Virus record (IMG/VR): IMGVR_UViG_3300021086_000012
Coordinates: 1-37,837 of that record
Direction: 5' to 3' (one strand)
Length of the DNA: 37,837 bases
Source of the DNA: a virus
Lineage: Duplodnaviria; Caudoviricetes
Shown: piece after piece, positions 1-16,491 of the stretch
How positions within the stretch are numbered: position 1 is the stretch's first letter
Layout of the letters: every line of letters starts with the position of its first letter
Notes under the pieces: model-generated
What the model saw: the letters and a program-made list of their open reading frames with translations, nothing else
Told to the model about the DNA's origin: nothing
Database searches by the model: none
Position numbers and translations under genes: made by a program

Positions 1-131
1 CGCCTCCGAGGCGAAAGAAGCCCACGGGGTCGGTGAGCCGATGATCCGACTTGGCGTCGCCGGTCTCGATGTCGAACACCACGGGTGCGCCGCCCATCAC
101 CGCCACACCTGCCACTGGGTGGAAATCAGCA
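1..131. repeat. Terminal direct repeat (circular assembly overlap), copy 1
   Basis: 1-131 equals 37707-37837 except position 5 (T vs G at 37711); the overlap falls across the polA 5' end and the upstream ORF 3' end. Confidence 0.97.
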
Positions 132-411
132 GCTGCGCCGGGTAGACGTTGACCCAGTACGCGTTGCCGTTGTCGGCGATCTCGTGGACCTGCGGCATCG
201 TGGTGACCCCGGCGGCGCGGAGCACGGCCATGGCCGCCTTGCCGTGCGATCCGAGTTTGGACACGTCGGTGGTGGGTCGTCCGGTGGACACCGCGAACTC
301 GCGCACGGTGATCCAGTCGGAAGGGACGACCCAAGCGGATTGGACCGCCGAGGCTGGGACCGCCGACGGGTCCGACGGCTCGTAAAGTCGTCGTGGCTGA
401 GCGTTGACCAT
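97..411 (-). CDS. Small protein, possibly antirepressor C-terminal-like DNA-binding domain
   Basis: CACCTGGAG RBS 8 nt before ATG 411; TGA overlaps the polA ATG (TGATG); WITVREFA...LG..G..A....RAAG...VNVYP.QLL resembles from memory the C-termini of phage antirepressor/Rha-type proteins. Confidence 0.6.
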   Translation of the reverse strand: MVNAQPRRLYEPSDPSAVPASAVQSAWVVPSDWITVREFAVSTGRPTTDVSKLGSHGKAAMAVLRAAGVTTMPQVHEIADNGNAYWVNVYPAQLLISTQWQVWR

Positions 412-457
412 GATCATTTCTCCAGGTGATCCGAACATCCGGTCGTCCTACGTTTCG

Positions 458-567
458 GGAGCGGAGTAGCAAACTCGCTCTTACTACTCACACCTTTAGT
501 AAAACACAATACCCCATTCCTCATTTCTAGAAGTCTCAGCAGTAGGCAGGGTTTGCTACTCCGCTCC
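458..567. other. Putative replication origin: 17-bp inverted repeat around an AT-rich core
   Basis: GGAGCGGAGTAGCAAAC (458-474) / GTTTGCTACTCCGCTCC (551-567), AT-rich spacer, repeated CTACT/AGTAG, directly downstream of the primase-helicase gene. Confidence 0.55.
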
Positions 568-601
568 TACTGTATTGATTCAGATCGTTCCCCCATTCGG
601 C

Positions 602-2698
602 CTACTCATCCCACTGAGACTCGGGCAAAGTGATCATGTTCCACACCCGACACTTGGCCGGATTTGAGTATTGATGCACGTCAGGCATATCGCGGATGAT
701 CTCCGCAAACTTGGTGCGGCCCAGCGGCTTGCGCCCGCCCGACACGATCCACTGACTGTATGCAATATACAGAAGCGCGGTCGTCACGCCAGGGGTCGCA
801 GACTTGGGCTCCCGCAGTGGCACAACTTGCGCGCACCGGGCGGCCCAGTCCGCTACCGAGTTGGACCGCTGCTCGAACTCTGCCCGCAGCCGCTCGGGCA
901 CAGGCACGTCCATTCCTCGAACTCTGCGTCGCTGGGCCGCCTCCACCCACCGTCGCAGGATGCCCGGCAGCTCCCGCAGCATGGCTTCTTCAATCGTCGG
1001 GTTCTCCCGCCCCGCGAAGCTGTGCGGGAACTTGACCGGGCGGATCCGCTCCAGGTACGCACGGCTGGCCTCGGACACCGACGGCAGCGTGTTGGCCGAG
1101 AACGCGAACAGGGCTTTGTTGTGGAACTCGAACTGCCGCCCGTGCTTCCGATCCGCCTGGATCAGATCGTCGCCGGTCATGGTCTTGAACACTGAGATGT
1201 CGCTGACCTCGGCCGCCGACAGGTCCGCGGCCACGTTCAGGATCCGGCCGTACACGTTGGCCGCGGCGAACCGGCTGTCGGCCAGCTGATGCAGGGTCAC
1301 GGCGCTGGTGTTCTCGATCCCAGCCACCGCCTTCAGCAGCCGCAGGAACGTCGACTTGCCCGAGCGGCTCGGCCCGAAGAGCATGAGCGCCCGGGGCGGC
1401 GTGCGCCGCGGGTCCAGCATCTGTCCCGCCAGCTCCTCCAGCCCCTCCACCTGGTCCGCGCCGATCATCGCGGGCAGCCACGCGTCATAGATCGGGCACG
1501 CCGCCGTAGCCGTGTCCTGCGGCCACGTCACCGGCACCTGGGTGAGGGAGAGGTGCTCAGGGCTGAAGGCGTAGAGCTGCCCGGTGGTGACGTCCAGCAG
1601 CCCGTTGGCCACCGCGATCAGCGGGACGTCTGATTTCTCCGGGATGACCCTGCCCGCCAGCGCTCCGTACAGCGAGTCCCGCACGGCGGCGGTGTGCGCG
1701 GTGCGGTACCGGTCGCCGAGCAGCGTGGCCACGGCGCCGGCGAACGCCGCGTCGTTGGGCCCGGACCGGTAGACGCATCCGTCGAAGATGGCGATCGAGT
1801 GCTCCCGGGTCAACGCCATGGGCGACTGACCGAGCAGCACGTTGGCCGCCGCCTGCGTGCGGAAGCCGTCCAGCGGGTCGAACAAAGCCGCCGCGCCGCT
1901 TGTGGCGCTGACCTTCGTCTTGGGCCGGCGGTAGTCCGCGAAGGTTTCGGGCGCCGCCGCCTCGATCAGCCGGCCGAGATAGGCGCGGCGGTCGCCGTCG
2001 ACGCGAGCGCCGAGCACGTCGTCCAGGCCGGTGGTGCCGGACGCGGGCAGCCGCAGAAACCGGACGTCTGCGGCCCCCTCGGCCCGCAGCGCCAGCTGGA
2101 GCCGGACGCCTGCGTCCCACACGTTGGGGTTGCTGGCGTAGTCGGCGTCCAGGCAGACCACCACGTCGCGCCCGCGGGCTGCTGAGAGCCCGCGGCCGGG
2201 CATGCCCCGCTCGCTGCCGCCCCAACAGCCGATCAAGCCGATGACGCCCATGCCCCCCGGCGCGTGCTGCGCCGCCACGATGGACTGCTTGGTGCCCTCC
2301 ACGAACAGCACCGGGCCGTCGCCGGCGGGCGCCCGCAGGGACCACTGCACTGAGCGGAACCCCTCGTCGCCACTGCGGAACAGGTACTTGGGCGGATCGG
2401 CCTCCCACTCGAACGAGCGGGGCTCGTCGGGCCGCAACTGCCACTCCACGTGGCCGGTGTCGTCCCGCCAGGGGAAGAGCAGGCCTGGCAGCTGGTGACG
2501 CCACCGGTCGGGCGTGTCGGCCGGCAAGTCGGCCGGGGATGTGGCCGACCGGACGCCGAGGCCGTGCGCGAACTCAGGCGTGATGCCCGCCTTGCTGAGC
2601 AGCCTCACGTGCGCGGGGGAGAACAGAGCGCTGTCAAGGGCGCCCTGGGCGGACTCATCCTCCGGTGTGGGCATGCTACTTTGTGTCTGCTCGGTCAC
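602..2698 (-). CDS. DNA primase-helicase (DUF3854/Toprim-like N-terminus + D5/P4-type SF3 helicase)
   Basis: Toprim-like LFVEGTKQ and VVCLDADY motifs; Walker A GPSRSGKST; FKTMTGDDLIQADRKH and FSANTLP SF3 motifs. Alternative in-frame ATG at 2674. Confidence 0.92.
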   Translation of the reverse strand: MTEQTQSSMPTPEDESAQGALDSALFSPAHVRLLSKAGITPEFAHGLGVRSATSPADLPADTPDRWRHQLPGLLFPWRDDTGHVEWQLRPDEPRSFEWEADPPKYLFRSGDEGFRSVQWSLRAPAGDGPVLFVEGTKQSIVAAQHAPGGMGVIGLIGCWGGSERGMPGRGLSAARGRDVVVCLDADYASNPNVWDAGVRLQLALRAEGAADVRFLRLPASGTTGLDDVLGARVDGDRRAYLGRLIEAAAPETFADYRRPKTKVSATSGAAALFDPLDGFRTQAAANVLLGQSPMALTREHSIAIFDGCVYRSGPNDAAFAGAVATLLGDRYRTAHTAAVRDSLYGALAGRVIPEKSDVPLIAVANGLLDVTTGQLYAFSPEHLSLTQVPVTWPQDTATAACPIYDAWLPAMIGADQVEGLEELAGQMLDPRRTPPRALMLFGPSRSGKSTFLRLLKAVAGIENTSAVTLHQLADSRFAAANVYGRILNVAADLSAAEVSDISVFKTMTGDDLIQADRKHGRQFEFHNKALFAFSANTLPSVSEASRAYLERIRPVKFPHSFAGRENPTIEEAMLRELPGILRRWVEAAQRRRVRGMDVPVPERLRAEFEQRSNSVADWAARCAQVVPLREPKSATPGVTTALLYIAYSQWIVSGGRKPLGRTKFAEIIRDMPDVHQYSNPAKCRVWNMITLPESQWDE

Positions 2699-2752
2699 TG
2701 GTCGCCTTTCGAGGATCGATCGGGGGCGGGTACATCACTCTCCAGGTGATCG

Positions 2753-2787
2753 GAAAGCCGGTGGTTCCCCTTGGGCCGCCGGCTTTC
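2753..2787 (-). promoter_or_regulatory. Stem-loop in primase leader
   Basis: GAAAGCCGG (2753-2761) / CCGGCTTTC (2779-2787); minus-strand -10-like TAGTGT at 2806-2811 just upstream. Confidence 0.5.
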
Positions 2788-2851
2788 TGGCATGTGGGGT
2801 CTCGGACACTACACCGGGTGAGCGCCCACGGAGCGAGTCTCGCACACGGTG

Positions 2852-2881
2852 TTGCAAAACACTGCAATGGGCGCGTAGCAT
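2852..2881 (+). promoter_or_regulatory. SigA/HrdB-like early promoter overlapped by TGCA-N6-TGCA site
   Basis: TTGCAA-N18-TAGCAT, upstream of RBS and ATG 2911. Confidence 0.6.
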
Positions 2882-2910
2882 GGCCTCACGACCACTCACC
2901 TGGAGAGCAC

Positions 2911-3333
2911 ATGACCCAGTTTCACGCGCCGAACTTCAGCGCTCCGGACGACCCGAACTGGAGCGCGGGCGCCGCGCCGGCCGCGCCCGAGCTGCTGCCG
3001 CACCACGTCATCCGCCTGGACAACGGCGACGCCGAGCGTCACCCGCGACTGGCCCAGCTGGTGGCCGCCTACGACGCCGCCAAGCTGGCCGTCGACAGCG
3101 CGGCCTCGACTCTCAGGGCGATCACCGACGGCATCAAGGCCGAGACCTCGGCGGCGTTGCCCGGCTGCACCGATGTCACGATCGTGTCGGGCAGCCTGGA
3201 GCACTCGCTGATGCTCCAGTACGTGGTGAGCCACCGAGTGGACACCAAGGCCATGCGCGCGGCGTTGACCCCAGAGCAGTACGCCAGCCTGACCAAGCCG
3301 ACCGGTGCCTGGACCCTGAAGCGGAAGCGATGA
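2911..3333 (+). CDS. Hypothetical phage protein
   Basis: CACCTGGAGAG RBS, ATG 2911, high-GC3 codon pattern, ATGA overlap with next gene. Confidence 0.8.
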   Translation: MTQFHAPNFSAPDDPNWSAGAAPAAPELLPHHVIRLDNGDAERHPRLAQLVAAYDAAKLAVDSAASTLRAITDGIKAETSAALPGCTDVTIVSGSLEHSLMLQYVVSHRVDTKAMRAALTPEQYASLTKPTGAWTLKRKR

Positions 3334-4643
3334 CCATGCCGAACAGCTACTGGAGCGACCCGAGGCGGGAGCTGGAGGGGACGATTCGCTGCTCGTTCGT
3401 CGACGGCGACGACCGGCGGTGCGTCTACGGCTGGTCGCCTCCCGCCACCGCTGAGATCCGCCGGGGCGACGTCGACGTGCCCGTGCACAGCCACCGGTTC
3501 GAGACACCCAACGGGGGCGCCGACTGGACGGCCGTGCCGGCCGACAAGGCTTCACCGGCCGACAAGGCTTCACCGGCCGACAAGGCTTCACCGGCCGACA
3601 AGGCTTCACCGGCCGAGGCTATGACCCGGGGGCTGGAGTATTTCGCGACAGCGGGGCCGACGGACGTGTTCCGCGGACCGGCCGCGAACCCGTTCGCCAA
3701 GCCGATGTCGACGCCGCCCTACGCCGAGGTCACCGTGTCCTGGAACGGCAGCCAGCTGTTCATGCACGATGACAATGAGCCGGGCCCCACGGGCAACAAG
3801 CTGGCCGCGGTCGCCGTCGATTCCGAGACCGCCCAGCACCTCGCCCACCTGTGCGCCGAGTGGCGCCGGGCGCGGGGGCTGGACAAGCAGCTCGGTGCAG
3901 CGCTGTCCGCCCTGGACGATGTGTCTGCGCAGTCGGTCCAGTTCGAACAGGAGCGGGACGCGTTGCGGCGTGCGATTGCCGAGCCGAAGTGGCCGGACAG
4001 CCTGGCGCTGGCCGAGATCGAGCAGCTGAAGGCGAAGCTGAAGGCCAAGACCGCACGGCTGGATCGCGAGCTGGCAGCGACCGAGCGGCTGGACCGCGAG
4101 ATAGGTGATCTCAAGGCGCGGGCGGTCAAGATCGAAGAGTCCCGATCTGGGGCCATCGGAGAGCTGAACAAGATCAAGCGGCTATGGCGAGAAGACATCA
4201 GTCGTCTGAATATCCATCGCGAGCTGGGCAGGGCTCTGGACGTCGACATCAGCGGCCAAACGTGGGACAACCTGCTCCAGAGGGTGAAGCGACAGCGCAC
4301 CGAGCGGGACGAGTGGGCCAGCCGCGCCGACAAGGCGGAGGCCGGTGTGGCCGACTACCGCGAGCGCAACGCGACGCTGGCCCGGATGTATGCCGCCACG
4401 TGCGAGCAGCGAGACAAGGCCGAGGCGTCGCTGCGGGACAGCCAGTCACTGCTCAATGATGCGGACAGGGACGATGGTGATCCGGTGGTCGAGCTTCGCG
4501 GGATGATCAGCGATCTCAGCGCCGATGTGGGCAAGCACTTCGTCCGACGCTGCTCGGCCCTGCGTGACGGCGTTCGGTGCGTTCAACCGGTCCACCACCA
4601 GGGCGCGCACCACACCGGCCGCGGATCGGAGCAGTGGCAGTGA
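3330..4643 (+). CDS. Coiled-coil protein with PADKAS repeats and C-terminal C2H2-W motif
   Basis: ATGA-coupled start; long heptad-rich helical region; C-x8-C-x5-H-x3-H-x8-W tail. Confidence 0.8.
   Translation: MTMPNSYWSDPRRELEGTIRCSFVDGDDRRCVYGWSPPATAEIRRGDVDVPVHSHRFETPNGGADWTAVPADKASPADKASPADKASPADKASPAEAMTRGLEYFATAGPTDVFRGPAANPFAKPMSTPPYAEVTVSWNGSQLFMHDDNEPGPTGNKLAAVAVDSETAQHLAHLCAEWRRARGLDKQLGAALSALDDVSAQSVQFEQERDALRRAIAEPKWPDSLALAEIEQLKAKLKAKTARLDRELAATERLDREIGDLKARAVKIEESRSGAIGELNKIKRLWREDISRLNIHRELGRALDVDISGQTWDNLLQRVKRQRTERDEWASRADKAEAGVADYRERNATLARMYAATCEQRDKAEASLRDSQSLLNDADRDDGDPVVELRGMISDLSADVGKHFVRRCSALRDGVRCVQPVHHQGAHHTGRGSEQWQ
3537..3616 (+). repeat. 18-bp perfect tandem repeat (CCGGCCGACAAGGCTTCA) x4 plus partial
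   Basis: Four identical units at 3537, 3555, 3573 and 3591; in frame, encodes PADKAS. Confidence 0.97.
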
Positions 4644-4861
4644 CCGAAGACGACCGATACGAGCTGTGTGAGCGGCTGGACCGGATCGCCGCTGCTGTGG
4701 AGCGCATCGCGGTGACGTTCGAGCCGACGACGATAACCACCGGGGCGCTGGCTGCCGAAGCGGCGCGGTGCCCGCGCAAGGGCGGTGCCGACTGGCAGCA
4801 GTGCATACGGCCCGTGGCCCACAGTCAACAGCACGTGGCCGAGAACGGGCACAGCTGGTGA
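4640..4861 (+). CDS. Small protein with C2H2-W motif
   Basis: GTGA overlaps at both ends; C-x10-C-x5-H-x3-H-x7-W. Confidence 0.75.
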   Translation: MTEDDRYELCERLDRIAAAVERIAVTFEPTTITTGALAAEAARCPRKGGADWQQCIRPVAHSQQHVAENGHSW

Positions 4862-5664
4862 CCGGCCCGAGCCCGGCCGACTTCATGGGTGACGCGCCCG
4901 TGCGGTCGGTGTCGGGGAACACCGAGTGGGCCGCCCGGATGGCGCGCACTGTGAAGGACGTGGTCATCCGGGCGTCCAACCGGGCGCCGCGCTCGCTCCA
5001 GGTGCACCTCGGACCGAGCGAGCTCGGTGTGGAGTGCGATCGACAGGTGGTGGGCAAACTGGTCAGCGAGCCCCGCACCAACCACGTGGCCGACCCGTGG
5101 CCCTCGGTGGTCGGCACCGCGGTGCACGCGTGGCTGGCCGACGCCTTCGAGGCGGACAACCAGTTGACCGACCAGCAGCGCTGGTACGCCGAGCGCCGGG
5201 TGACCCCGCATCCGGAGCACCCTGGCACCGGGGACCTGTACGACGCGCACGAGCGGGCCGTGCTGGACCACAAGTGCCTTGGGCAGACCAGCCTGGACAA
5301 GGTCCGCTCGGGCAGGGTGCCGCGCAAATACCGGCGGCAGCTGCTGCTCTACGGCCTCGGCTTTCTGCGTCGGGGGCTGCCGGTGGAACGAGTGGGCATC
5401 ATCGCTTACCCGCGCACCGGCAGCACACTGGACAGCCTGTACGTGTGGGAGGCACCGTTCGACGGCGACGCCTACATCGAGCTGGCCGACACTTTTGCCG
5501 AGACCGCACGGCGCAAGCGGCAGGCGGCCGAAGTGCTCACCGGTCACCTGACGCTGGCCCAGGTGCCCCGCGCGCCTAGCTCGGACGAGTGCTACTTCTG
5601 CCCGTTCTACCGGCCGCAGTCCGGCCACGATGGTGGCCCCGGCTGCCCGGGGACGGTGGCGTGA
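4858..5664 (+). CDS. Cas4/RecB-like PD-(D/E)XK exonuclease
   Basis: GPSELGVECDR, GTAVHAW, GTGDLYD..VLDHK, QLLLYG, C-terminal CYFCPF...C (Fe-S staple cysteines). Confidence 0.88.
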   Translation: MTGPSPADFMGDAPVRSVSGNTEWAARMARTVKDVVIRASNRAPRSLQVHLGPSELGVECDRQVVGKLVSEPRTNHVADPWPSVVGTAVHAWLADAFEADNQLTDQQRWYAERRVTPHPEHPGTGDLYDAHERAVLDHKCLGQTSLDKVRSGRVPRKYRRQLLLYGLGFLRRGLPVERVGIIAYPRTGSTLDSLYVWEAPFDGDAYIELADTFAETARRKRQAAEVLTGHLTLAQVPRAPSSDECYFCPFYRPQSGHDGGPGCPGTVA

Positions 5665-5849
5665 TGGCGGATCTGAGCCAGTGTCCTAATGGCCACGCGT
5701 CGATGGGCGACGGCCAGTGCAACATCCGCGGCTGCGCGCACTGCGACCCCATCGTGGAGAAGCCGACGCGCACCGGCAGCGGCAAATCCAAGGACGGCCG
5801 AGCGTCGGTCGGCGGCGGCTTGGCCAAGCGCAGAGGTCCCCGAAAGTAG
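5664..5849 (+). CDS. Small Cys-rich, basic-tailed protein (putative zinc-binding)
   Basis: TGATG-coupled; MADLSQCPNGH...CNIRGCAHC, K/R-rich C-terminus. Confidence 0.65.
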   Translation: MADLSQCPNGHASMGDGQCNIRGCAHCDPIVEKPTRTGSGKSKDGRASVGGGLAKRRGPRK

Positions 5850-5852
5850 AAG

Positions 5853-5880
5853 TTGCATTTCGTTGCAATCCGTGTAGTGT
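5853..5880 (+). promoter_or_regulatory. Promoter with TGCA-N6-TGCA site
   Basis: TTGCAT-N16-TAGTGT; TGCAtttcgtTGCA. Confidence 0.6.
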
Positions 5881-5887
5881 GGCACTT

Positions 5888-6226
5888 GTTCGGACTGGAG
5901 AGCGACCGGCGCCCAGCACCACCGGGCAAGCCCAGAGCGACCGATGCGGGTGCGAGTCCTGATCAAGGTCGAACGGAGATCGAACCCACGTTCGGACCAC
6001 AGCAGCCAGCCGGACAGGGCGACAGCCCCGGCGCACGAGGCGACCAACGCGAGTGCGAGTCTCGGACTAAGGATCGAACGTGGGTTCACACCGTGGCAGT
6101 GGGTCAGGCACCGGGCACGGGAGGCGCTGGGAGACCAGGACATGCCCCGGAGGGTCGCTCACCCGGCCGACTGCCACAGGATGCGCCCCGGCATTTCATC
6201 GACCGTGTCTTGCCGGGGCGCAGTCC
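5888..6226 (+). ncRNA. Candidate structured non-coding RNA / leader with two tandem homologous units
   Basis: Perfect stems 5982-5994/6075-6087 (13 bp), 6093-6100/6170-6177 (8 bp), 6182-6193/6211-6222 (12 bp); two TGCGAGT loops closed by 4-bp stems; GAGA tetraloop; non-protein-like reading frames. Confidence 0.65.
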
Positions 6227-6258
6227 CCACATCATCAGCAGAATCGAGAAGCGCGATC

Positions 6259-7125
6259 ATGACGCAGCCGTACAACCCCCAGTACAACCAGTCAGTCCAG
6301 CAGGCGCCCATGCAGGGCTACCCCCAGTACAACCAGCCGATGCAGCCGCTGCCCGTCGCCCCCGGTTACCCGCCGCAGCAGTACGGCCAGGTTCCCCCGC
6401 CAGCGCAGCCGCAGGCCCCGTTGGCGCAGGGCACCCTGGACGACTTCTACGACCAGCCCACCGTCGGCGGCGGCTCGGGGCTGCCATTCAAGATCCTGGG
6501 CACTGAGCACTACGTGGAGACCACGCGGCCGATCACCAAGGCGGACGTGCAGCAGCAGACGGACACTCGGGGAAACGCCCAGACCTTCCGCGACGGCCGG
6601 CCTAAGTTCCAGATGCTCGTGCCGGTGCACGTGCTCAACAGCAACGTGCCCGAGTCGATCGGATCCACGGCCACGTTCTACGTGAAGGGGGCGACCCGCG
6701 AGAAGCTGGCCGCCGCCATGGCCGCCGCCGGCGCTCCCGCCGGCCCGCCCGAGGCAGGCTGCCGGATGCGGCTGCGCTACGCCGCGGACGTGCCGACCGG
6801 CGCCGGGTTCAACCCGCGCAAGGACATCGACATCACCTATGATCGGCCGGCCGACGCGCCCGCCACATCGGTCGCGCCGATCGCTCCCGCGCAGATCCCG
6901 CAGCCGTCAGCCGCACCTGCGCAGCTGGCTCCGCTCCAGCCGATGGTCAACGTTCCGCCGGCCCCGGCGCAGGCCACGCCGGCGGCTCCGCTCGCACAGG
7001 ACGTCCGTCCCCCCGCGGCGCCGATCCCGGCCGCCGGCATGCCGCCCGCGCCGCCGCAGATGTCCCCGGAGCAGCAGGCGGCGTACGCCACGTTGCTGGC
7101 CCAGATCGGGCAGCCGCAGGCCTGA
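6259..7125 (+). CDS. Probable single-stranded DNA-binding protein with low-complexity termini
   Basis: Core GGGSGLPF...QQTD...FRDGRPKFQMLV...FYVKG...GFNPRK..ITY.RP resembles actinophage SSB-type proteins; Q/P/Y-rich N-terminus, P/A-rich C-terminus; sits between exonuclease and helicase. Confidence 0.65.
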   Translation: MTQPYNPQYNQSVQQAPMQGYPQYNQPMQPLPVAPGYPPQQYGQVPPPAQPQAPLAQGTLDDFYDQPTVGGGSGLPFKILGTEHYVETTRPITKADVQQQTDTRGNAQTFRDGRPKFQMLVPVHVLNSNVPESIGSTATFYVKGATREKLAAAMAAAGAPAGPPEAGCRMRLRYAADVPTGAGFNPRKDIDITYDRPADAPATSVAPIAPAQIPQPSAAPAQLAPLQPMVNVPPAPAQATPAAPLAQDVRPPAAPIPAAGMPPAPPQMSPEQQAAYATLLAQIGQPQA

Positions 7126-7135
7126 CGGACAGACC

Positions 7136-7179
7136 AGCGGCCCTGTGTCCGTGACGCTGTCACCGGGCGCAGGGCCGCT
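7136..7179 (+). terminator. Stem-loop terminator
   Basis: AGCGGCCCTG...CAGGGCCGCT long hairpin right after the stop codon. Confidence 0.7.
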
Positions 7180-7202
7180 TCTCACCCTGGAGAGGAGAGG
7201 CC

Positions 7203-7277
7203 ATGATCGCTTTCGGGCTTGTCGTGATGTTCGTGTCCGTCGGCGTGGCCGTGTTCGCGACGCTGGTGATGGACTGA
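7203..7277 (+). CDS. 24-aa single-TM micro-protein (MIAFGLVVMFVSVGVAVFATLVMD)
   Basis: Strong GGAGAGGAGAGG RBS; TGATG overlap with next ORF; below ORF-track cutoff. Confidence 0.65.
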   Translation: MIAFGLVVMFVSVGVAVFATLVMD

Positions 7278-7369
7278 TGATCACTATCCTGGCTGGGCTC
7301 ACCTGCCTGATGATGACGTTCACCGCCGGTTGGCTGTGGCGAGACACCAACGGAGGGATCGGCCGGTGA
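7277..7369 (+). CDS. 30-aa hydrophobic micro-protein (MITILAGLTCLMMTFTAGWLWRDTNGGIGR)
   Basis: TGATG-coupled start, GTGA-coupled end. Confidence 0.6.
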   Translation: MITILAGLTCLMMTFTAGWLWRDTNGGIGR

Positions 7370-7482
7370 GGTTCGAATGGGACCCGCGATGCTGGCGGCA
7401 TTGGGGTGTGCTCCGCACGCAGTCCGTGCTGTACATCGACATGGGCCCGCTCACAGCCGTCATCCGGCGGCGAAAGCGATGA
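7366..7482 (+). CDS. 38-aa basic micro-protein (MRFEWDPRCWRHWG...IRRRKR)
   Basis: GGAGG RBS, GTGA start overlap, ATGA overlap with helicase start. Confidence 0.6.
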   Translation: MRFEWDPRCWRHWGVLRTQSVLYIDMGPLTAVIRRRKR

Positions 7483-9290
7483 ACATCCTGCACGGCGAGA
7501 TCGCCGACGACGACCGGACCGTCGTGCTGTTCGCCACCGGCCCGCAGGTGGAGCAGATCGCGCAAAGCCTGGCGCTGCTCACCCCCGCGCTCCGCTCGGC
7601 CGGCAACCCGGACGCCAATCCGCTCGGGGCGTTGAAGGTGCCGCTCTCCTGGGCGCTGTGCGTCCAGCTGGCGGCCCAGTACCCGAACGTGTGGCATCCG
7701 GGCCCCCGGCTCCAGGCGTGGCTTCTCAGGCAGGTCCAGGCCCGGCTGCGCACGCCCTGGACCGACCGCGAGATCGAGGCGGTCCGGGCGCACATGCCGG
7801 CCGACGCGCCCGAGCCCTACGCCTACCAGTGGGACGGCGCGTGGATGCTGGCGGGCACCGGGCGCGGCTTCCTGTTCGACGACCCCGGCACCGGCAAGAC
7901 GCTGACGGCGCTGCTCGCGGTGCTGTGGATGCGGGCGCTCGGCGCGCTGCCGCTGGCGGGGCCGGTGCTGATCGTGGCGCCCAACTCGGTCCAGGACTCA
8001 TGGGTGCGGGCCGTGCACACCTGGACCAACCTGCGGGCGATCGCCTGGCGGGGCACGCCCAAGCAGCGCGCCCGGCTGCTCGGCACCGCGGACGTCTACG
8101 TGACCGCGTACAGCATGACCTACCGCGACGCCGCGGCCCCGCACCGCTACTCCAACGGCGGGTCAACGCCGGGCGGCGCGCTGTGGAACATGCAGCCTTC
8201 CTGCGTGATCGTGGACGAGTGCCATGCGATCAAGAACAAGGACACCGCCCAGAGCCTCGCGGTGCGGCGCATCGGCGCGCACGCCCCGTCCGCGTTCCTG
8301 CTGTCCGGCACGCCCATCACCCACACCGTTCGGGACCTGTGGCCCGCGCTGGCCACCGTGGAGCCGGCGGCGTTCCCGAGCGGGGAGCGATACACCGAGC
8401 GCTATGTGGCCACCGCCCGTGGGGACTACGAAGACGTGGTGCTCGGGCTGAACGAGTTTCGCGAGCCCGAGTTCCGGCAGGTGCTGGCGGGGCAGTACCG
8501 CCGGCTGGCCAAGGCGGACGTGCTGAGCCAGCTCCCGCCCAAGGTGTACTCGGTGCGAGAGGTCGAGCTGCCGGCCGAGTGGCGCAAGGCGTATGACCAG
8601 ATGGAAACCGACATGCTGGCCCAGCTGCCCGACAGCGGTGAGGAGCTGTCAGTGATGGGCGCGTTGACACAGCTGCTGCGGCTGTGCCAGCTGGCCGGGG
8701 CCGCCGCCGACACCTGGACTGAGTACGAGCTGCGGGACAACCCAGACACCGGGCTCCCGGAGGAAGTGGCGGTGGTCAAGGTCAAGCTGCGGGCGCCGAG
8801 CTGGAAGGCCGATGAACTGGTGGCCATCCTGGATGAGCGGCCGGGACAGCAGGTGGCGGTGTTCGCGCCGAGCCGGCAGCTCATCGACGTGGCTCACGAG
8901 CTGGTCGGCAAGGCAGGCTACCGGTGCGCCACGGTGGTCGGCGGCCAGTCGGCGGCCGAGCGCACCGCCGAGGTGGACGCGTTCCAGGCCGGTGAGCGGG
9001 ACGTGGTGCTGCTGACCACGCAGGCTGGCGGGGTGGGGCTCACGCTCACCAGGGCCAGCGTGGTGGTGTTCCTCCAACGGCCCTGGTCCTACGTGGAGGC
9101 CAGCCAGGCCGAGGACCGCTGCCACCGCATCGGGTCGGAGATCCATGAGTCGATCGAGGTCATCGACATCGTGGCCAAGGACACCGTGGACAGCCGAGTC
9201 CGCTCAGTGCTGCGCGAGAAGGCGGGCGCGCTGGCCGAGCTGCTGGAGGACCCGCGGATCATGACCGAGGTTTTGGGGGGTGCTAAATGA
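7479..9290 (+). CDS. SNF2-family (SF2) DNA helicase
   Basis: DDPGTGKT, IVDECH, LLSGTP, AGGVGLTLT, QAEDRCHRIG motifs. Confidence 0.95.
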   Translation: MNILHGEIADDDRTVVLFATGPQVEQIAQSLALLTPALRSAGNPDANPLGALKVPLSWALCVQLAAQYPNVWHPGPRLQAWLLRQVQARLRTPWTDREIEAVRAHMPADAPEPYAYQWDGAWMLAGTGRGFLFDDPGTGKTLTALLAVLWMRALGALPLAGPVLIVAPNSVQDSWVRAVHTWTNLRAIAWRGTPKQRARLLGTADVYVTAYSMTYRDAAAPHRYSNGGSTPGGALWNMQPSCVIVDECHAIKNKDTAQSLAVRRIGAHAPSAFLLSGTPITHTVRDLWPALATVEPAAFPSGERYTERYVATARGDYEDVVLGLNEFREPEFRQVLAGQYRRLAKADVLSQLPPKVYSVREVELPAEWRKAYDQMETDMLAQLPDSGEELSVMGALTQLLRLCQLAGAAADTWTEYELRDNPDTGLPEEVAVVKVKLRAPSWKADELVAILDERPGQQVAVFAPSRQLIDVAHELVGKAGYRCATVVGGQSAAERTAEVDAFQAGERDVVLLTTQAGGVGLTLTRASVVVFLQRPWSYVEASQAEDRCHRIGSEIHESIEVIDIVAKDTVDSRVRSVLREKAGALAELLEDPRIMTEVLGGAK

Positions 9291-9847
9291 TCATCATCGG
9301 AGTGGACCCCGGCAGCACCACCGGGCTGGCCGTGCTGGCGCTGGTTGACAACCGGTACCAGTGTCTGCATGTGGAGCAGATCGCGGCCGGTGTCTTTCCC
9401 GATCGGCTTGGCGTGGTGGTCACCGACTTGTTGGCCACAGGGCAACTCGACGCTGAAACGCAGCCCGCGCTGTTCGGCGGCGGCACCGTCGTGACAGGCG
9501 TGGCGGATAGCGCGTTGCTGATCGCCACCGAAGCGTTCGTGGTGCGTGGACGTGCTGCTCGCAGCCGGACGCATCAGGGCGGTGAGCACGCTCGGCGGAT
9601 CAACGGCTGGCTGGAATCCGTCGTGAAGTCGAACGGGGGATGCCGCATCTCCACCCGCTCCGCGTCGCAGGTCAAGAAGTGGGCCACCGACCGGCGGCTG
9701 GCCGCGGCTGGCATCCTGGAGCAGACCCGCGGGATGGGCCATGCTCGCGACGCCCAGCGGCACGCCCTGTTCGCCGCGCGGATGGATCTTCAGTGGCCCG
9801 ATCCATTGTCGGTAAGTTACCCCAAGCAGAGCGTTACTCAGAAGTAG
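9287..9847 (+). CDS. RuvC-like Holliday junction resolvase
   Basis: N-terminal IIGVDPGSTTGLA, central E, C-terminal HARDA.RH (RNase H fold acidic residues). Confidence 0.8.
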   Translation: MIIIGVDPGSTTGLAVLALVDNRYQCLHVEQIAAGVFPDRLGVVVTDLLATGQLDAETQPALFGGGTVVTGVADSALLIATEAFVVRGRAARSRTHQGGEHARRINGWLESVVKSNGGCRISTRSASQVKKWATDRRLAAAGILEQTRGMGHARDAQRHALFAARMDLQWPDPLSVSYPKQSVTQK

Positions 9848-9888
9848 GGCCCGACCTGGGTCCGGATAAGTCACCTGGAGAGTGGATC

Positions 9889-10299
9889 ATGAGAACACAC
9901 ACCAGCGATATCCAACGCAGCCGCAGAACCGCGCGGATGGCGGACCGACCCGAGCAGTCCCCGGCCGTGGAGACCAGCTGGCAGCCGCCGGACTGGACGA
10001 ACGACGCCGAGTGCCTGGAGCTGGACCACGATCCGGAGTGGTGGTTCCAGCCCGCCAACACCGCGGACGCCAAGAAGGCCAAGCGGCTCTGTTCGCTGTG
10101 CCCCGTGATGGCGCTGTGCCGCGCGTACGCGCTGGACAACCGCATCTCCGACGGCACCTGGGGCGGGCTGTCCGAGTCGGAGATCCGCAGCCAGCTGCGG
10201 GAGCGGGACATCGTGGCCAAAGCGGAGGGGATCCTGGTCAAGCGCGGGTACAACATCGATGTGGGCAAGGTGACCCGACGAAAGCCGGTGGCGATATGA
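9889..10299 (+). CDS. whiB: WhiB-family transcription factor
   Basis: W...A.C...DPEWWF...AKRLCSLCPV...C..YAL...GTWGG; TCACCTGGAGAG RBS; alternative ATG further downstream. Confidence 0.93.
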   Translation: MRTHTSDIQRSRRTARMADRPEQSPAVETSWQPPDWTNDAECLELDHDPEWWFQPANTADAKKAKRLCSLCPVMALCRAYALDNRISDGTWGGLSESEIRSQLRERDIVAKAEGILVKRGYNIDVGKVTRRKPVAI

Positions 10300-10499
10300 G
10301 ATGCCAGCACTGTTACTCGGACATCCGGGAGGCGCGCATCACCGAATACGCCGCCGCCGATCTGGTAGAGGGTAAGCCGATGCCGTCGGTGTGGATGTCC
10401 GAGCACGGGTCGCCGTTCTGCCTGCGAGCGCTGTGCGAGTCCGAAAGCCACCCGGACACCTGGCATGAGGTCAAGCACGAGCCGATGCCCGCGGTGTGA
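10296..10499 (+). CDS. Small Cys/His protein
   Basis: ATGA overlap; MRCQHC...FCLRALC...H. Confidence 0.65.
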   Translation: MRCQHCYSDIREARITEYAAADLVEGKPMPSVWMSEHGSPFCLRALCESESHPDTWHEVKHEPMPAV

Positions 10500-10536
10500 C
10501 AGAGCCCCGGTCGCCCACAGAGCGGCGGGGGCTCTG
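10500..10536. terminator. Bidirectional hairpin terminator between convergent blocks
   Basis: CAGAGCCCC...GGGGCTCTG between two convergent stop codons. Confidence 0.8.
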
Positions 10537-10538
10537 CA

Positions 10539-11795
10539 TCACCCGATCATCACCGGCAGAACGAAGCTGCCGCCGCTGGACAGGTCGGTCAGCGGGTTGA
10601 ACGACGCGGGCCAGGCGGTGTAGCCGCCGCCCTTGTACCGCCCGTAGAAGTCGCCGAAGACCGCGGTGGACGCCAGATTCACGAACCCGAACTCGGGCGC
10701 CGCGCTGTAGCCGCGGCACGACACCGCCACCCAGAACGCGGTGTCCACCGACGGCGTGGTGATGCCGGTGATCGGTTTGGTCACCTTGCCGGTCGTCTCC
10801 CACATGGCGTCGTCCGAGGCGCTCTGCCACAGCAGGTTCGCCGCCGCGGCGTCCCAGATGGCGAACCCGTTCAGACCGGTCGTGCTGTGGGTGGCCGCCG
10901 CCGAGGACCGCACCGCGATCGCGCTGGCCAACGGTGAGCCGGCCCGCACGATGACCTTGCCGAACCACGCCTCATTGTTGATCGTGCTCTTGGCGTTGAC
11001 CGAGAAGAACGGCAGGTTGGCCGAGTGAGCGCCCAACGGCGCGAGATAGCGGTCCGACTGGGCAGGCGCGCTCTGGAGCGCGGTGTCGGCCAACCCCAGC
11101 GACGTCTGCACCGCGGCCGCCAGATCGGCCTTGGGGACGCCGGGGCCCGGCTTCTGGTACGCCGTGTTGGCCAGGCCCAGTGAGCTCTGCGCGCCCGAGG
11201 TGAGATCGGTGGACGGGATGCCCGAGCCGGGCTTGACGTAGGCAGCGGCCGCCACACCGGCAGCGCTGGTCGCCGTGGACTGCGCCGCGGTCGCCGCGCC
11301 GCCGGCGGCGGTAGCGGTCGACTGCGCTGTGCTGATCGCGGACTGCACGCTGGCCGCCACGATCACAGTCTTGGACGTGCTGGTCCCGCCCACGGTGATC
11401 GAGGCGTCTGGAGAGTTGATGCCGACGATGCCCCCGCCGGGCACGCCTACCGGTGGCGGGATCAGCACCGGCACGAGATCAGACAGGTGCACATCGTCCG
11501 GGCTGCTCGGCAGCAACGCGAAGAACTCGGACGTCATCACGTCGGTGTCAATCTCGATCGTGTAAGCGAACCCCTGCGGGCTCACCCCGGCCGAGTCATT
11601 GGCGGGAGCCTCGAACACAGCGATACCATCGATCAGCGTCGCTGTGATCGGCCGGGTGTTGCCGAACAGGATGTGATCGGTGGCGTCCCGCAGGGCGTAG
11701 GGCAGCCGAAACCGCACCACGCCTTGGGCGCCGGCGCTGGTGACCGGGTCGCGCACCTCGGCGCGCACCGTCACCATGGTGACTGCGGTGGGCAT
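10539..11795 (-). CDS. Tail fibre / receptor-binding minor tail protein
   Basis: N-terminal attachment-like domain, A/T/S-rich linker, duplicated YxKPGxG(I/V)PxxDL...QxSLGLAxTA fibre repeat, beta-rich C-terminus; TGATG-coupled to holin. Confidence 0.7.
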   Translation of the reverse strand: MPTAVTMVTVRAEVRDPVTSAGAQGVVRFRLPYALRDATDHILFGNTRPITATLIDGIAVFEAPANDSAGVSPQGFAYTIEIDTDVMTSEFFALLPSSPDDVHLSDLVPVLIPPPVGVPGGGIVGINSPDASITVGGTSTSKTVIVAASVQSAISTAQSTATAAGGAATAAQSTATSAAGVAAAAYVKPGSGIPSTDLTSGAQSSLGLANTAYQKPGPGVPKADLAAAVQTSLGLADTALQSAPAQSDRYLAPLGAHSANLPFFSVNAKSTINNEAWFGKVIVRAGSPLASAIAVRSSAAATHSTTGLNGFAIWDAAAANLLWQSASDDAMWETTGKVTKPITGITTPSVDTAFWVAVSCRGYSAAPEFGFVNLASTAVFGDFYGRYKGGGYTAWPASFNPLTDLSSGGSFVLPVMIG

Positions 11796-12085
11796 CAGAC
11801 CTTCTGATCGAACTGCTTGGCCGCCTCGGCGCTCACGGCCGTGACCACGGTGGCCGCCTGGCTCACCACGGCGGTGCCCTGCGCCAGCGCCTTGGTGACA
11901 CCGGACTGGACACCGGCCACGTGCACCACCACACCGATAAGGCCAACAGCGATGCCCGCGAGCACGGCCACCCACTCGGGCAACCCGGGCAGCGCCACCG
12001 GCGCGTAGCTCACGGTGCCCAGCGCGAGCAGGATCTGAATCAACGTCGCGCCGATCCGGTTGACGAGGTCGCTCTTCATGATCAT
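11795..12085 (-). CDS. Holin (2 predicted TM segments)
   Basis: Small hydrophobic protein directly after the endolysin; DLVNRIGATLIQ start. Confidence 0.75.
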   Translation of the reverse strand: MIMKSDLVNRIGATLIQILLALGTVSYAPVALPGLPEWVAVLAGIAVGLIGVVVHVAGVQSGVTKALAQGTAVVSQAATVVTAVSAEAAKQFDQKV

Positions 12086-12957
12086 GCTCCTGGGGGTGTG
12101 GCCGTGCCGGTGAAAGAACCGGACAGGCTGATGGACAGCGGCACGGGGCCGCCGCTGGCGACGGTCAGAGCGGCGATCTGGGCCTTCAACGCCGTGTTCT
12201 CGGCCGCGGTGTCGAACGCCGCGATGAGCGCCGAGCCGATGTTCACGTAGTCGCCCGGCTTGGCGGGGTCGCCCCCGGGCCGCAGGATGTTGTACCGCAG
12301 CAGCAAGCCCACATCGTCATTGGTCAGTGCCATGTCACTCTCCACGTTCTGTCCGAAGTTGGCCTGCTTGGCCTCATTGACGTCGCAGTCGACGCCGCCG
12401 ACCTTCACGGTTCCGAGGCGCTGGAGCAGGTGGATGGCGGTGTCGACCTGGCCGCCCGACCACGCCATCGTCTGCCAGGTCCACTGGGCCAGCCCGGCCG
12501 CGCGCACCCGGCCGACGGCGTAGAAGCTCCCGTAGACGCCGACGCGCTCCAGCGGCAGCACCGCGCGGATGCCGCCGAAGTAGTCGCCCACTGGGCCCAG
12601 CTTGGCTAGCGGGCTGGTGGCCGCCGGCGCGTAGTCGGGCAGGTCGAAGTCGATGGCGAAGTAGATCGGCCAGCCGTCCAGGCCGCAGGCGCGCGCCTGG
12701 GCCATCGCGGCCCCGGCGTCAGCGGCGCCGGCGGCGCGGCCCTGGGCGGCGCGGTCCGGCCCGGACAGCAGCTTGCGCTCCCAGACCAACGCCACGTCGA
12801 CGCCAGCCCCACGCAGGTCGGCCGCCTCGGCCGCGGTCAAGTTGGCCCGGCCGCCGCCCAGCCCGTTGTCCAGGTAGCGGACGACGAAGCTGTATCCCGC
12901 CGCGCGAATGGCCGCGCCGGACGGCCGGCCCGCGCTGTAGTCCAGTCCGAGCGTCAT
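12082..12957 (-). CDS. Endolysin, DUF1906/Rv2525c-like GH25-related glycoside hydrolase
   Basis: LGLDYS...GYSFVVRYL, VALVWE, PIYFAIDFD, GVYG, WQT.AWS.G, CDVN motifs. Confidence 0.88.
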   Translation of the reverse strand: MTLGLDYSAGRPSGAAIRAAGYSFVVRYLDNGLGGGRANLTAAEAADLRGAGVDVALVWERKLLSGPDRAAQGRAAGAADAGAAMAQARACGLDGWPIYFAIDFDLPDYAPAATSPLAKLGPVGDYFGGIRAVLPLERVGVYGSFYAVGRVRAAGLAQWTWQTMAWSGGQVDTAIHLLQRLGTVKVGGVDCDVNEAKQANFGQNVESDMALTNDDVGLLLRYNILRPGGDPAKPGDYVNIGSALIAAFDTAAENTALKAQIAALTVASGGPVPLSISLSGSFTGTATPPGA

Positions 12958-13271
12958 GGCCGCGCCTTCCAATAAAGCCGCCAGGGGAACCACAGCAGCG
13001 CGTCCGCGATGGCCTTGCCGACAATGCTGCTCGGGGACGAGAACACCATGGTGTGGCCGAGTAGCGCGTTGATCGCGCCGGGGATCAGCAACGCCAGCAG
13101 CATGGCAGGCAGGGACAACAGCAGCTGCCGGGCCGCCTGCTCGCTGGCACCGAAGTCCGGACGTCGGCCCTGCCACGGCCTCCAGACGTTGACCGTGTAG
13201 AGCACGAGGAACGTGGCCGACGCGCCGATGCCGACCAGCTGAAGGACCCAGGCCAGCACGAGCGGGATCAC
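12954..13271 (-). CDS. Membrane protein of lysis cassette
   Basis: About three hydrophobic segments; overlapping start/stop coupling. Confidence 0.7.
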   Translation of the reverse strand: MIPLVLAWVLQLVGIGASATFLVLYTVNVWRPWQGRRPDFGASEQAARQLLLSLPAMLLALLIPGAINALLGHTMVFSSPSSIVGKAIADALLWFPWRLYWKARP

Positions 13272-13507
13272 CGGTCACTCTCCACGATTCGGTGCGCGGC
13301 TGCCACGAGCGACTCCACCAGGCCGTTGCGCTCCCAGATGTCGTCGGTCGCGCGGATGACCGGCTCGGCTTGGGCCCGCCGGCCCCGCGCCGCCGCCAGC
13401 TTCATTCGTTGGACACGCAGCGCTTCCACCGCCTCGGGATCCGGGCCCGGGTCTGTCGGCGGCGGATCGTGCTTCCGGAGCGATCGGGGCCAGTGGATGC
13501 GCGTCAT
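13268..13507 (-). CDS. Hypothetical protein of lysis cassette
   Basis: Coupled at both ends; C-terminal ERNGLVESL. Confidence 0.7.
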   Translation of the reverse strand: MTRIHWPRSLRKHDPPPTDPGPDPEAVEALRVQRMKLAAARGRRAQAEPVIRATDDIWERNGLVESLVAAAHRIVESDR

Positions 13508-13851
13508 ACCGGGTCACGCCCTTCGTGGGTAGAGGGCAGCTGTTGGATGAGCTGGGTTGAGCGTACGGCCACCTCGGCCGCGGGGAGCAGTCTTCGCACG
13601 GTCTCTCTGTCCAGGTCCGCGCGCTCATCGGCCTTGTCGGCGATCGTCCGCCACAGATCCCGGTCCGCGCGGGCCCGCTCCAGCTCGGCGTCCAGGGACT
13701 CGCGCACCCGCTTGAGTTGACCTCGGGTCATCAGCCGGTCCGAGAGAATGAAGTATCCGACCAGCGCCACCACCAGCACCGCGAACAGCCAGCCACCGGT
13801 CACCTGGAAAGCGGCTGACCACGTGGTGGGGTCCACAGCGCTCGGGTCCAT
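13504..13851 (-). CDS. Single-TM + coiled-coil protein of lysis cassette
   Basis: GAGGAG RBS; TM GWLFAVLVVALVGYFIL then RL.TR...DRDLWR. Confidence 0.75.
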   Translation of the reverse strand: MDPSAVDPTTWSAAFQVTGGWLFAVLVVALVGYFILSDRLMTRGQLKRVRESLDAELERARADRDLWRTIADKADERADLDRETVRRLLPAAEVAVRSTQLIQQLPSTHEGRDPV

Positions 13852-13939
13852 CGTGCACACTCCTCACGTAGGAACGTGACGCGCGGCGGGCGCAGGGGTT
13901 GCGCCGCATTCGATTCCGCCACTGAGCGTAACGCACCCC

Positions 13940-13981
13940 TGCGACGTTTTGCGTGTTGTACGATGTTGCAATGGGTTGCAA
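13940..13981 (+). promoter_or_regulatory. Divergent control region; probable leaderless promoter with TGCA-N6-TGCA sites
   Basis: TACGAT (13959-13964) 6 nt before ATG 13971; TGCGACGTTTTGC plus GTTG(C/T)A x3 at 10-bp period. Confidence 0.6.
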
Positions 13982-14957
13982 ACGGACGATTCACGGCTGG
14001 TCGGCGGGCCCGGGCGGCAGTGAGTGGTACCGGCTCACCGCGCCGCTCTCGCAGCTCGCTGACCAGTACGGATGGCAGGCGTCGGTGAGCACCGTCTACC
14101 CGTCCACCCGCGTGCTGGACCCACCCGACATCGTCCTGGTCCAGCGGCCGATGAACGAGGTGACGGTGCGCACGGTGCGGCACTGGCACCGCAAGTCGCT
14201 GACCATGGTGGCCGTCGACCTGGACGACGATTTCTGGTCGATCCCGGAGGACAACCCGGCGCACCGACTGGCCACGCCCGAGCTGCTCGGCCGGTTGGAA
14301 CAGTGCCTGGCCATGGCCGACGTGGTGACCGTGAGCACGACCACGCTGGCCGAGCGGGTGTCCGAGCACACCAACTCCCCCATCCGCGTGGTCGGCAACT
14401 TCGTGCCCGAGGCGCTCATCAAGCGCCGGGCGCCGGGCGGCCGCAAGGTCACCGTGGGCTGGTCCGGATCGCCGACGCACCTCGGGGACTGGCAGGCCAA
14501 CGCCGCCGGCATCCGAGAAGCGCTGGAGTACTCCAACAAAATCGACTTCCATGTAGTGGGCGCTGACTACCGAACCGAACTGGGTTGGGACGGCCATCTC
14601 TGCTGCGGTCGCCACACCCCGTTCCAACGGGACATCGTCGACTACTACGACGCGCTGGACTTCCATGTGGCGTTGGCTCCGCTCGCGCCCACGGAGTTCA
14701 ACCGCTCCAAGTCGGACATCCGAATCCTGGAGTCGGCGGCCATTGGCGCGGTGCCGGTGATGTCTCATGTCGGGCCGTATGCCAAGATCTCGGGTCGCCA
14801 CACGGACAAGGACGGCTGGCGACAGCACGTGGCCGACCTGGTCAGCAACCCCGTCATGCTCCACCGAGAGCGAGTGATGTGGCGCGAGTGGGCTCGGTCA
14901 CGCACCATCGAAGAAAATGCCCACCGTTGGCACGACATCTACGAAAGCGTGATGTGA
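13971..14957 (+). CDS. Glycosyltransferase, GT-B fold (GT4-like)
   Basis: WYRL..P, DIVLVQR, VDLDDDFW, DVVTVST..LA, VGWSGS.TH, FNRSKSDIRILE motifs. Confidence 0.88.
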   Translation: MGCKRTIHGWSAGPGGSEWYRLTAPLSQLADQYGWQASVSTVYPSTRVLDPPDIVLVQRPMNEVTVRTVRHWHRKSLTMVAVDLDDDFWSIPEDNPAHRLATPELLGRLEQCLAMADVVTVSTTTLAERVSEHTNSPIRVVGNFVPEALIKRRAPGGRKVTVGWSGSPTHLGDWQANAAGIREALEYSNKIDFHVVGADYRTELGWDGHLCCGRHTPFQRDIVDYYDALDFHVALAPLAPTEFNRSKSDIRILESAAIGAVPVMSHVGPYAKISGRHTDKDGWRQHVADLVSNPVMLHRERVMWREWARSRTIEENAHRWHDIYESVM

Positions 14958-15082
14958 TGGCGCACATTCCGACCCCGCGCAAGGGGAACGAGCCACCAGT
15001 GTGCAAGACGTGCGGTGAGCCGCTCAGCAGTCATAAGTGCGCCAAGTGCGGCGGCTGCTGGGTTCTGTGCGGGTGCGCCTGA
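14957..15082 (+). CDS. 41-aa Cys-rich zinc-finger-like protein
   Basis: TGATG coupling at both ends; CKTC...HKCAKCGGCWVLCGC. Confidence 0.7.
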   Translation: MAHIPTPRKGNEPPVCKTCGEPLSSHKCAKCGGCWVLCGCA

Positions 15083-16235: not shown

Positions 16236-16243
16236 GGAAGAAT

Positions 16244-16375
16244 ATGCCCAAGAACAAGACCCAGCACCCCGCGCCGGAACCCGTGTGCAGCGATGTCAGC
16301 CCATGGGGCGAGTCGTGCCAGCGGACGAGGGGCCACGACGGCAAGCACAACAGCTCGGGAAGGAGCTGGGACTGA
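16244..16375 (+). CDS. 43-aa protein with C2H2-W motif
   Basis: GGGAAG RBS; MPKNK...VCSDVSPWGESCQRTRGHDGKHNSSGRSWD; TGATG overlap; not in ORF track. Confidence 0.7.
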   Translation: MPKNKTQHPAPEPVCSDVSPWGESCQRTRGHDGKHNSSGRSWD

Positions 16376-16491
16376 TGGCGGACCCGAGGGACTGCGACCA
16401 CATCGGCAACGTGTCGACTGTGATCGAGGGTGACTACCAGATCACTCGATGCAACAAGTGCGGGGCAGACCTGCACCGAACCAAGTTATAA
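16375..16491 (+). CDS. 38-aa zinc-ribbon-like protein
   Basis: AGGAG RBS; CDH...RCNKCG. Confidence 0.65.
   Translation: MADPRDCDHIGNVSTVIEGDYQITRCNKCGADLHRTKL

Follow-up and report, generated by a model that had tools for sequence, protein, structure and literature searches.

Tandem T-loop units in the leader of an SSB-like gene of an actinobacterial phage as candidate tRNA-elbow-like RNAs

Introduction

Apart from tRNAs, little is known about the noncoding RNAs of phages. A structured leader 5' of a phage SSB gene is described for gene 32 of T4 and RB69 in the available portions of PMC3014915 and PMC535899; the T4 operator consists of a pseudoknot 67 nt upstream and an unstructured region (PMC3014915), and the accessible part of PMC10690425 lists structured candidates 5' of GP32 genes. 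The same portion of PMC3014915 places two small noncoding RNAs, RNAC and RNAD, in the T4 tRNA region. In T4-type phages, PeSL cassettes join a promoter to a stem-loop and are shuffled between phages; the stem-loop is a terminator, and many copies are present per genome (available text of PMC2839356). YrlA, a Y RNA of about 100 nt that is present in actinophages, has a closing stem and a T-loop, the part order V-T-AS-D, the motif GNCGAAN0-1G close to the 5' terminus, and a gene for Ro60 no more than 4 kb away (available text of PMC4201824). Finally, the T-loops of FMN and cobalamin riboswitches follow the consensus (YGNRA)NY, and their intercalating partner is almost always A (available text of 10.1101/2022.12.26.521914).

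Here, we describe two T-loop units in the 37,837-nt stretch of phage DNA analyzed in this study (the window), which covers positions 1 to 37,837 of IMG/VR record IMGVR_UViG_3300021086_000012. Like the gene 32 operator, they belong to a structured leader 5' of a phage SSB-like gene. Unlike it, they are multi-helix T-loop domains 170 to 370 nt upstream of the gene with no A+U-rich tract, and a comparable pseudoknot is possible only in two relatives, L003 and L023, whose leaders are of type B. The units resemble RNAC and RNAD as small phage noncoding RNA candidates, but they lie in an SSB operon leader with no tRNA gene near. They also share with PeSL cassettes the pairing of a promoter-like site with a folded element, but they occupy one site per genome and are complex folds 3' of the promoter. 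A Y RNA was considered for its similar size, closing stem, and T-loop and was rejected: there was no Rfam match, and gene context, motif position, and part order all disagreed. In the units, the T part comes last, and only unit 1 has a GNCGAAN0-1G-like word, at its 3' end; TROVE/Ro60 (PF05731) was found in none of four records, three of which are incomplete.

Results

The viral record is about 85% complete by a completeness estimate and carries terminase, portal, capsid, tail, primase, and polymerase genes. The virus is an actinobacterial siphovirus, a soil phage, and actinobacterial genomes hold relatives of the SSB-like gene 3' of the leader. The units lie inside a gene run of exonuclease, small ORF, 288-aa ORF, and helicase, and all features of the locus given here are on the plus strand. 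The small ORF (5664 to 5849; 61 aa, Cys-rich, of no family) stops 3 nt 5' of a promoter-like site and is retained in the near-identical phage L036 with nine differences. The promoter-like site (5852 to 5880) consists of the palindrome TTGCA-N6-TGCAA (5853 to 5868) and a -10-like TAGTGT. Between this site and the SSB-like gene (6259 to 7125; 288 aa, predicted OB-fold), which precedes an SNF2-type helicase gene, is a noncoding leader of about 370 nt with units 1 and 2 at its 5' end. Unit 1 (5888 to 5974) comprises a closing stem, an AGC-bearing junction, a CCGG hairpin (5906 to 5925), a linker, and a T-hairpin (5947 to 5961; loop, 5951 to 5957), with GCGACC at 5937 to 5942. Unit 2 (5982 to 6087), which has a homolog in the relative L002, comprises a perfect 13-bp closing stem, a bulged hairpin (6009 to 6032) with a GACA loop, GCGACC at 6040 to 6045, and a T-hairpin (6050 to 6064; loop, 6054 to 6060). 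Elsewhere in the window, an 18-nt unit occurs in four tandem copies at 3544 to 3615 within an early ORF. In another relative, a long insertion in the exonuclease gene (L110:1986-3749) splits the terminal Cys motif and resembles a homing-endonuclease-containing intein.

The initial annotation had proposed two tandem homologous units, and its motifs and coordinates were correct: TAGTGT at 5875 to 5880, GTTCGGAC at 5888 and 5990, CCGG pairs at 5906/5922 and 6010/6028, GCGACC at 5937 and 6040, both T-hairpins, and the perfect 13-bp arms at 5982 to 5994 and 6075 to 6087. It was incomplete, having overlooked two further elements. A third folded unit (6093 to 6178) is unrelated to units 1 and 2 and has no T-loop; its 3' portion is complementary at 15/18 positions to the 5' portion of unit 1. 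It is followed by a 12-bp hairpin (6182 to 6222) with a pyrimidine internal loop, a short stem on top, and no U-tract, whose shape is kept in L002 and L003 with a different sequence. A conserved 14-nt box (6236 to 6249) 5' of the start codon is identical in L002, L003, and L036. The start codon is at least 170 nt 3' of the unit ends, with a separate hairpin in between.

The homology of the two units was confirmed by local alignment (score, 53 versus a shuffle mean of 22.3 with a standard deviation of 4.2; none of 3,000 shuffles scored as high). Unit 1 was also the top nontraining match in a 558-kb search with a model built from unit-2-type copies only, at 23.1 bits, a score to be read against the chance matches of 21 to 27 bits that whole bacterial genomes yield. 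Hairpins of at least 4 bp with a T-loop-like loop occurred twice in the window, both in the units, and 0.6 times per shuffled window, with a loop pattern that was picked after inspection of the site.

The folding evidence was mixed. The earlier observation that the T-stem changes while pairing is kept stands for one change on both sides, G-C to A-U; the other change is G-U to G-C. The selection on RNA structure that had been read from it did not reach significance as covariation with so few sequences, the support being one or two pairs. Unit 1 alone folded no better than its shuffles (z, -0.9), and unit 2 gave a z of -4.5. ViennaRNA did not choose the T-hairpin, and forcing it cost 3.3 kcal/mol in unit 1, 6.0 in unit 2, 10.0 in L003, and 7.1 in L023; it was absent from the predicted ensembles of these four. 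Altogether, energy models were against the T-hairpin in five of six clade units tested, by 2 to 10 kcal/mol; only in a further relative, L050 (1.8 kcal/mol; closing pair probability, 0.76), was it favored. Tertiary docking would therefore have to pay for the T-hairpin in most units.

The proposal that the element belongs to no known family was upheld. At the Rfam gathering threshold, the whole window gave no matches, and region 5650 to 6300 at an E value of up to 10 gave only sR2 (E, 6). Rfam matches were also absent from the leaders of L002, L003, L023, and L050 and from genomes G001 to G003. Searches by blastn against annotated phages and plasmids returned short chance matches or none, no description of the element was found in searches of open-access text, and six supplementary files of PMC10690425 contained no match. 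By eye, against their consensus sequences, HDV-like, twister, pistol, hairpin, and hammerhead ribozymes and SAM-I, ZTP, c-di-GMP-I, and c-di-AMP riboswitches were dropped. Hence a candidate structured RNA 5' of the SSB-like gene stands, as had been suggested: it is uncatalogued, sequence constrained, and transcribed-looking.

The sequence constraint was seen in the comparison with L036. Units 1 and 2 differed at 1 of 201 positions, and fourfold-degenerate sites differed at 68 of 745. The whole leader held 4 differences in 372 nt, and differences resumed at its edges (5837 and 6276). Unit 1 was unchanged over 90 nt, and the sole change in unit 2, G6057A, falls inside the loop and keeps loop position 4 a purine. 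The contrast between units and silent sites argues for constraint on nucleotides rather than on a peptide in frame 5944. However, two coding windows of 200 nt also held just one difference, and a recent shared or recombination tract is thus a possible source of the low divergence. This matters for the view that the units are a decayed tRNA remnant or functionless hitchhiker, or that an N-terminal extension of the SSB-like protein starts at ATG 5944. Low-divergence tracts elsewhere suit the former; for the latter, frame 5944 is open into the SSB-like gene, and open in-frame ATGs occur in L002 and L050. Nevertheless, three of the four differences to L036 in frame 5944 change the amino acid, with one silent change seen versus 5.5 expected, the in-frame ORF of the L003 and L023 leaders ends in a stop after 10 codons, and the leader peptides are unrelated; the ORF is not conserved. 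In addition, the loop consensus is maintained across three scaffolds. We therefore consider a remnant or an extension very unlikely.

Evidence for transcription came from a metatranscriptome. Seven sequencing runs were listed, of which one was RNA (X3). An X3 contig spanning 5896 to 6556 was identical to the window and ran into the SSB-like gene; its depth of 37.4, against 2.6 to 7.9 for the other seven listed RNA pieces within positions 1 to 20000, comes from one study that was selected together with this stretch, and such contigs give no strand, level, or ends. The DNA run X5 was even over the same positions (about 0.4 to 4.9 per bin). We infer a transcription start at about 5887, which the contig fits; its end at 5896 carries an adapter-like sequence, which we take to be adapter, and the missing RNA cover 5' of 5896 was not counted as proof of the start site. 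The candidate RNA, from 5896 on, is thus transcribed-looking. A generic sigma-70 scan of 5500 to 6500 called no promoter and no terminator. The promoter-like motif recurs at 2851 to 2881 and has two copies in G001 and two in G002. The palindrome TTGCA-N6-TGCAA is common to the sites at 2851 to 2881, 5852 to 5880, and about 16513 to 16549 and is likely a repressor or activator operator. RNA contigs were also present at 16438 to 17044 of the window.

The contig also bears on the suggestion that the element is a ribozyme. In this scheme, cleavage by a self-cleaving RNA related to twister-sister would leave the SSB mRNA with a free 5' end. By eye against the available text of PMC7373991, unit 1 contains two short words like the core strands, in permuted order, and a TGCAAGT loop resembles L4; the available text of PMC11620745 was also used for comparison. 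The permuted fit fails by eye in unit 2 and L002, however, the required P1 has only about three pairs, and the RNA contig crosses the units unbroken. RF02681, in whose architecture an L1 internal loop separates P1 from P2, had no match at the locus at an E value of up to 10, in a search that would miss permuted forms. With the twister-sister test negative, we give the ribozyme little credence.

Relatives were collected by three scans with an alignment of SSB-like proteins (32, 59, and 14 loci). From 89 translated proteins, 72 distinct ones of at least 220 aa were retained, with heuristic start codons that are wrong for some, and 65 of the 72 loci had at least 300 nt of upstream sequence. The pattern G-(YGNRA)NY-C was present upstream in 9 of these 65: the window, L036, L002, L003, L023, L050, plus three loci among the other 59, in which the stems are 1 to 2 bp and the loop sequences different. 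When a stem of at least 3 bp was required, the counts were four of the six clade loci and none of the 59 others, one of which, a leaderless locus, comes from genome G010; this genome also contributed to the bacterial chance-match estimate, and no claim here depends on it alone. The six loci form one branch in a quick tree (SH-aLRT, 96), and all six leaders contain a YGCRARU loop, in the variants TGCGAGT, TGCAAGT, TGCGAAT, CGCGAAT, and CGCAAGT. Three scaffolds surround this loop. Scaffold A occurs twice in the window, twice in L036, and once in L002; scaffold B, a bulged hairpin with a possible 5-bp pseudoknot, occurs in L003 and L023; and scaffold C occurs in L050. Scaffold A was not recovered by a model of B, nor B by a model of A. 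In L003 and L023, the loop is closed by a single pair and the pseudoknot fits better, with one compensatory pair in 14, which is not significant. As L003 and L023 are not sisters, scaffold B is either ancestral or exchanged.

The initial annotation had likened the tandem pair to the interdigitated T-loops of the tRNA-binding platforms in T-box riboswitches, RNase P, and the L1 stalk. The leaders of L002, L003, L023, and L050 have one T-loop unit each, and in the window there is one T-loop per unit rather than two in one RNA domain. A tandem interdigitated platform is therefore unlikely to be the core of the element and is not needed.

Pattern scans for further members recovered one locus with the strict unit pattern (L002) and two with the type-B pattern; the promoter pattern gave 12 loci and no further clade member. 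Relaxed patterns gave 17 and 14 loci, mostly chance matches in coding DNA, and in 401 actinomycete genomes, 1 match versus 3 control matches. That single match was rejected for its lack of a T-stem and its coding appearance, as were model matches in five bacterial genomes, which had no T-hairpin, and a T-arm-like word of G002 within a long ORF-like stretch. One relaxed-pattern locus, L143:585-635, holds a GC-rich intergenic stem and T-arm between two small genes of a 37% GC phage. Its gapless alignment with the linker and T-arm of the units makes it a plausible distant homolog. T-stem pairs changed on both sides number two of four with L143 and one without it; the covariation score with L143 was reached by 12 of 500 shuffles, a figure that is not a probability.

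We also examined the SSB-like protein. It has a confidently predicted core, with an OB-fold at residues about 76 to 202, and disordered P/Q-rich ends. The fold matches of the core are OB-folds but weak (best Foldseek E, 0.03; best VIA Z, 5.1), with T4/RB69 gp32 among the top rows (VIA Z, 4.5 to 4.6), and no sequence match was found in annotated phages, Pfam, or PDB. Its closest relatives among those known only as proteins (P0002, P0003, P0004, P0006, and P0007) share 60 to 66% identity with it. In view of these weak to middling fold matches, the predicted 288-aa protein is termed SSB-like.

This gene context raises a cis-acting role, in which the folded domain of the SSB operon leader would nucleate SSB binding for translational autorepression of the T4 gene 32 type or shield the 5' end of the mRNA. 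All six loci lie directly 5' of an OB-fold gene with gp32 among the top fold matches, type B is able to form its pseudoknot, the 14-nt box is conserved, and the RNA contig joins leader and gene. Moreover, the second promoter motif copy (2851 to 2881) has an ATG 29 nt on and no units, and in a post hoc count, seven of nine leader ATGs are in the SSB frame, as expected under purging of out-of-frame starts. On the other hand, scaffolds were exchanged though the SSB gene was retained, the units lie 170 to 370 nt upstream without A+U-rich repeats, the majority of SSB relatives have no leader, and a single gain in the tree accounts for the SSB link without function. In place of the A+U-rich tract at the gene 32 ribosome site, the window has a C/A-rich stretch of 30 nt that is partly unpaired (mean, 0.59 unpaired). 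We regard an SSB operator or leader as only slightly less probable than the reading that we favor below.

Other leaders showed features of their own. L003:2860-2892 and L023:2638-2670 each contain an ORF of 10 codons whose start, length, and TAG stop are conserved. It is in the SSB frame, which reopens after the stop, and could reflect a leader peptide or readthrough; the TAG falls within the loop of the hairpin that may form the pseudoknot. The L050 leader ORF begins with a similar M-x-N-R. A separate SSB clade, that of L072 and L075, has its own promoter and leader; this leader lacks a T-loop but contains four repeats resembling GCAGTAAG, located 170 nt 5' of the SSB-like start, and is a candidate operator.

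All five clade loop variants satisfy (YGNRA)NY, the T-loop consensus of FMN and cobalamin riboswitches, which agrees with the idea of tandem riboswitch-like aptamers that sense a metabolite and control replication genes. The linker is conserved and unpaired, and unit 1 has an alternative pairing with the third unit. Unlike FMN and cobalamin riboswitches, however, the units have no other riboswitch element, and no curated aptamer model in Rfam matched. The alternative pairing misses the last hairpin and the start region, and three scaffolds with no terminator fit a switch poorly. No expression platform was found; the riboswitch-like leader of the initial annotation was not supported, and a metabolite sensor appears very unlikely.

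A counterpart of the loop was also found in tRNAs. In the jumbo phage G008, 5 of 15 listed tRNAs have a TGCRAGT T-loop; by eye, in this one phage, the D-loops carry AG in all five and GG in the 10 U55 tRNAs. These G55/A18 tRNAs have a T-loop heptamer identical to that of the units and a similar AG-bearing segment but are complete, with D-stem, anticodon, and CCA. Elbow geometry for the comparison was taken from the available text of PMC4810234. In unit 2 and L002, the junction is similar to two G008 D-loops; unit 1 lacks the D-loop-like word, which is frequent, with 71 matches in the window and a chance of about 0.02 per 20-nt junction, and the pattern is post hoc. ARAGORN found no tRNA genes at the locus or nearby. 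The closing helix is irregular, so that there is no 7-bp acceptor, and no CCA follows it; D-stem and 7-nt anticodon loop are also lacking, with a 12-nt loop in unit 1 and a bulge plus tetraloop in unit 2 instead. Putative tRNA mimicry is the best lead.

Unusual T-loops occurred in other records as well. The G008 tRNA cluster (L173; C1, about 95800 to 98100) contains the five tRNAs that pair a G55 T-loop with an A18 D-loop, and several of its tRNAs have long variable regions. L150:556-634 and L136:565-640 are tRNA-shaped with G55 T-loops and were missed by ARAGORN. L141:575-700 and L147 (G005 and G006), from two 7-kb phage records, share a structured intergenic element whose loop is TGCAAAT. 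Rfam gave no match for L136, L141, L147, or L143 and a tRNA match below threshold for L150 (24.2 bits).

Discussion

The cassette is a real, uncatalogued, narrowly distributed phage RNA whose fold is partly supported. We tentatively favor the reading, at a probability of roughly 0.35, that the units are exchangeable tRNA-elbow-like small RNAs, autonomous modules rather than a switch; this reading and an SSB leader are close rivals. The units would be paralogous noncoding modules with which an early phage transcript begins, and host nucleases may release them from it. Each would fold alone into a compact tRNA-elbow-like shape, and the resulting small RNA mimic would be stable and accumulate. 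The order of closing stem, stemless AG-bearing junction, hairpin, linker, and T-arm may correspond to acceptor, D, anticodon, variable, and T parts of tRNA. As with the G55/A18 tRNAs from G008, the T-loop might be locked by the A-G dinucleotide, through intercalation of the A and a pair between the G and loop C3. Early in infection, the units could serve as decoys for host factors that read tRNA shape, such as tRNA nucleases, sensors, or modifying enzymes.

The idea of exchangeable autonomous modules agrees with the three scaffolds around one loop, with scaffold B in non-sister phages, and with a copy number of one or two. The units are self-closed, exchangeable, sometimes duplicated, and remote from the start codon, as autonomous small RNAs would be. 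We counted the distance of at least 170 nt with its intervening hairpin for this reading, together with the low divergence of the units from L036 and the excess depth of the RNA contig. Against a small RNA are the continuation of this contig into the SSB-like gene and the lack of a U-tract terminator. Against an elbow are the energy penalties of the T-hairpin and the missing D-stem, anticodon loop, acceptor, and CCA.

It is rather unlikely, although consistent with the elbow-like reading, that the clade keeps interchangeable anticodon-less tRNA-elbow decoys against host defenses or enzymes, which, with L143 as a possible minimal relative in an unrelated low-GC phage, would make a widespread class. 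If the units proved to be an SSB operator, autocontrol of the T4 gene 32 type would have a second solution with no structural relation to the first. The three natural scaffolds around one loop are a ready comparison set of 60- to 110-nt RNAs. An RNA-only decoy against tRNA-directed defense, if true, would be a new counter-defense route.
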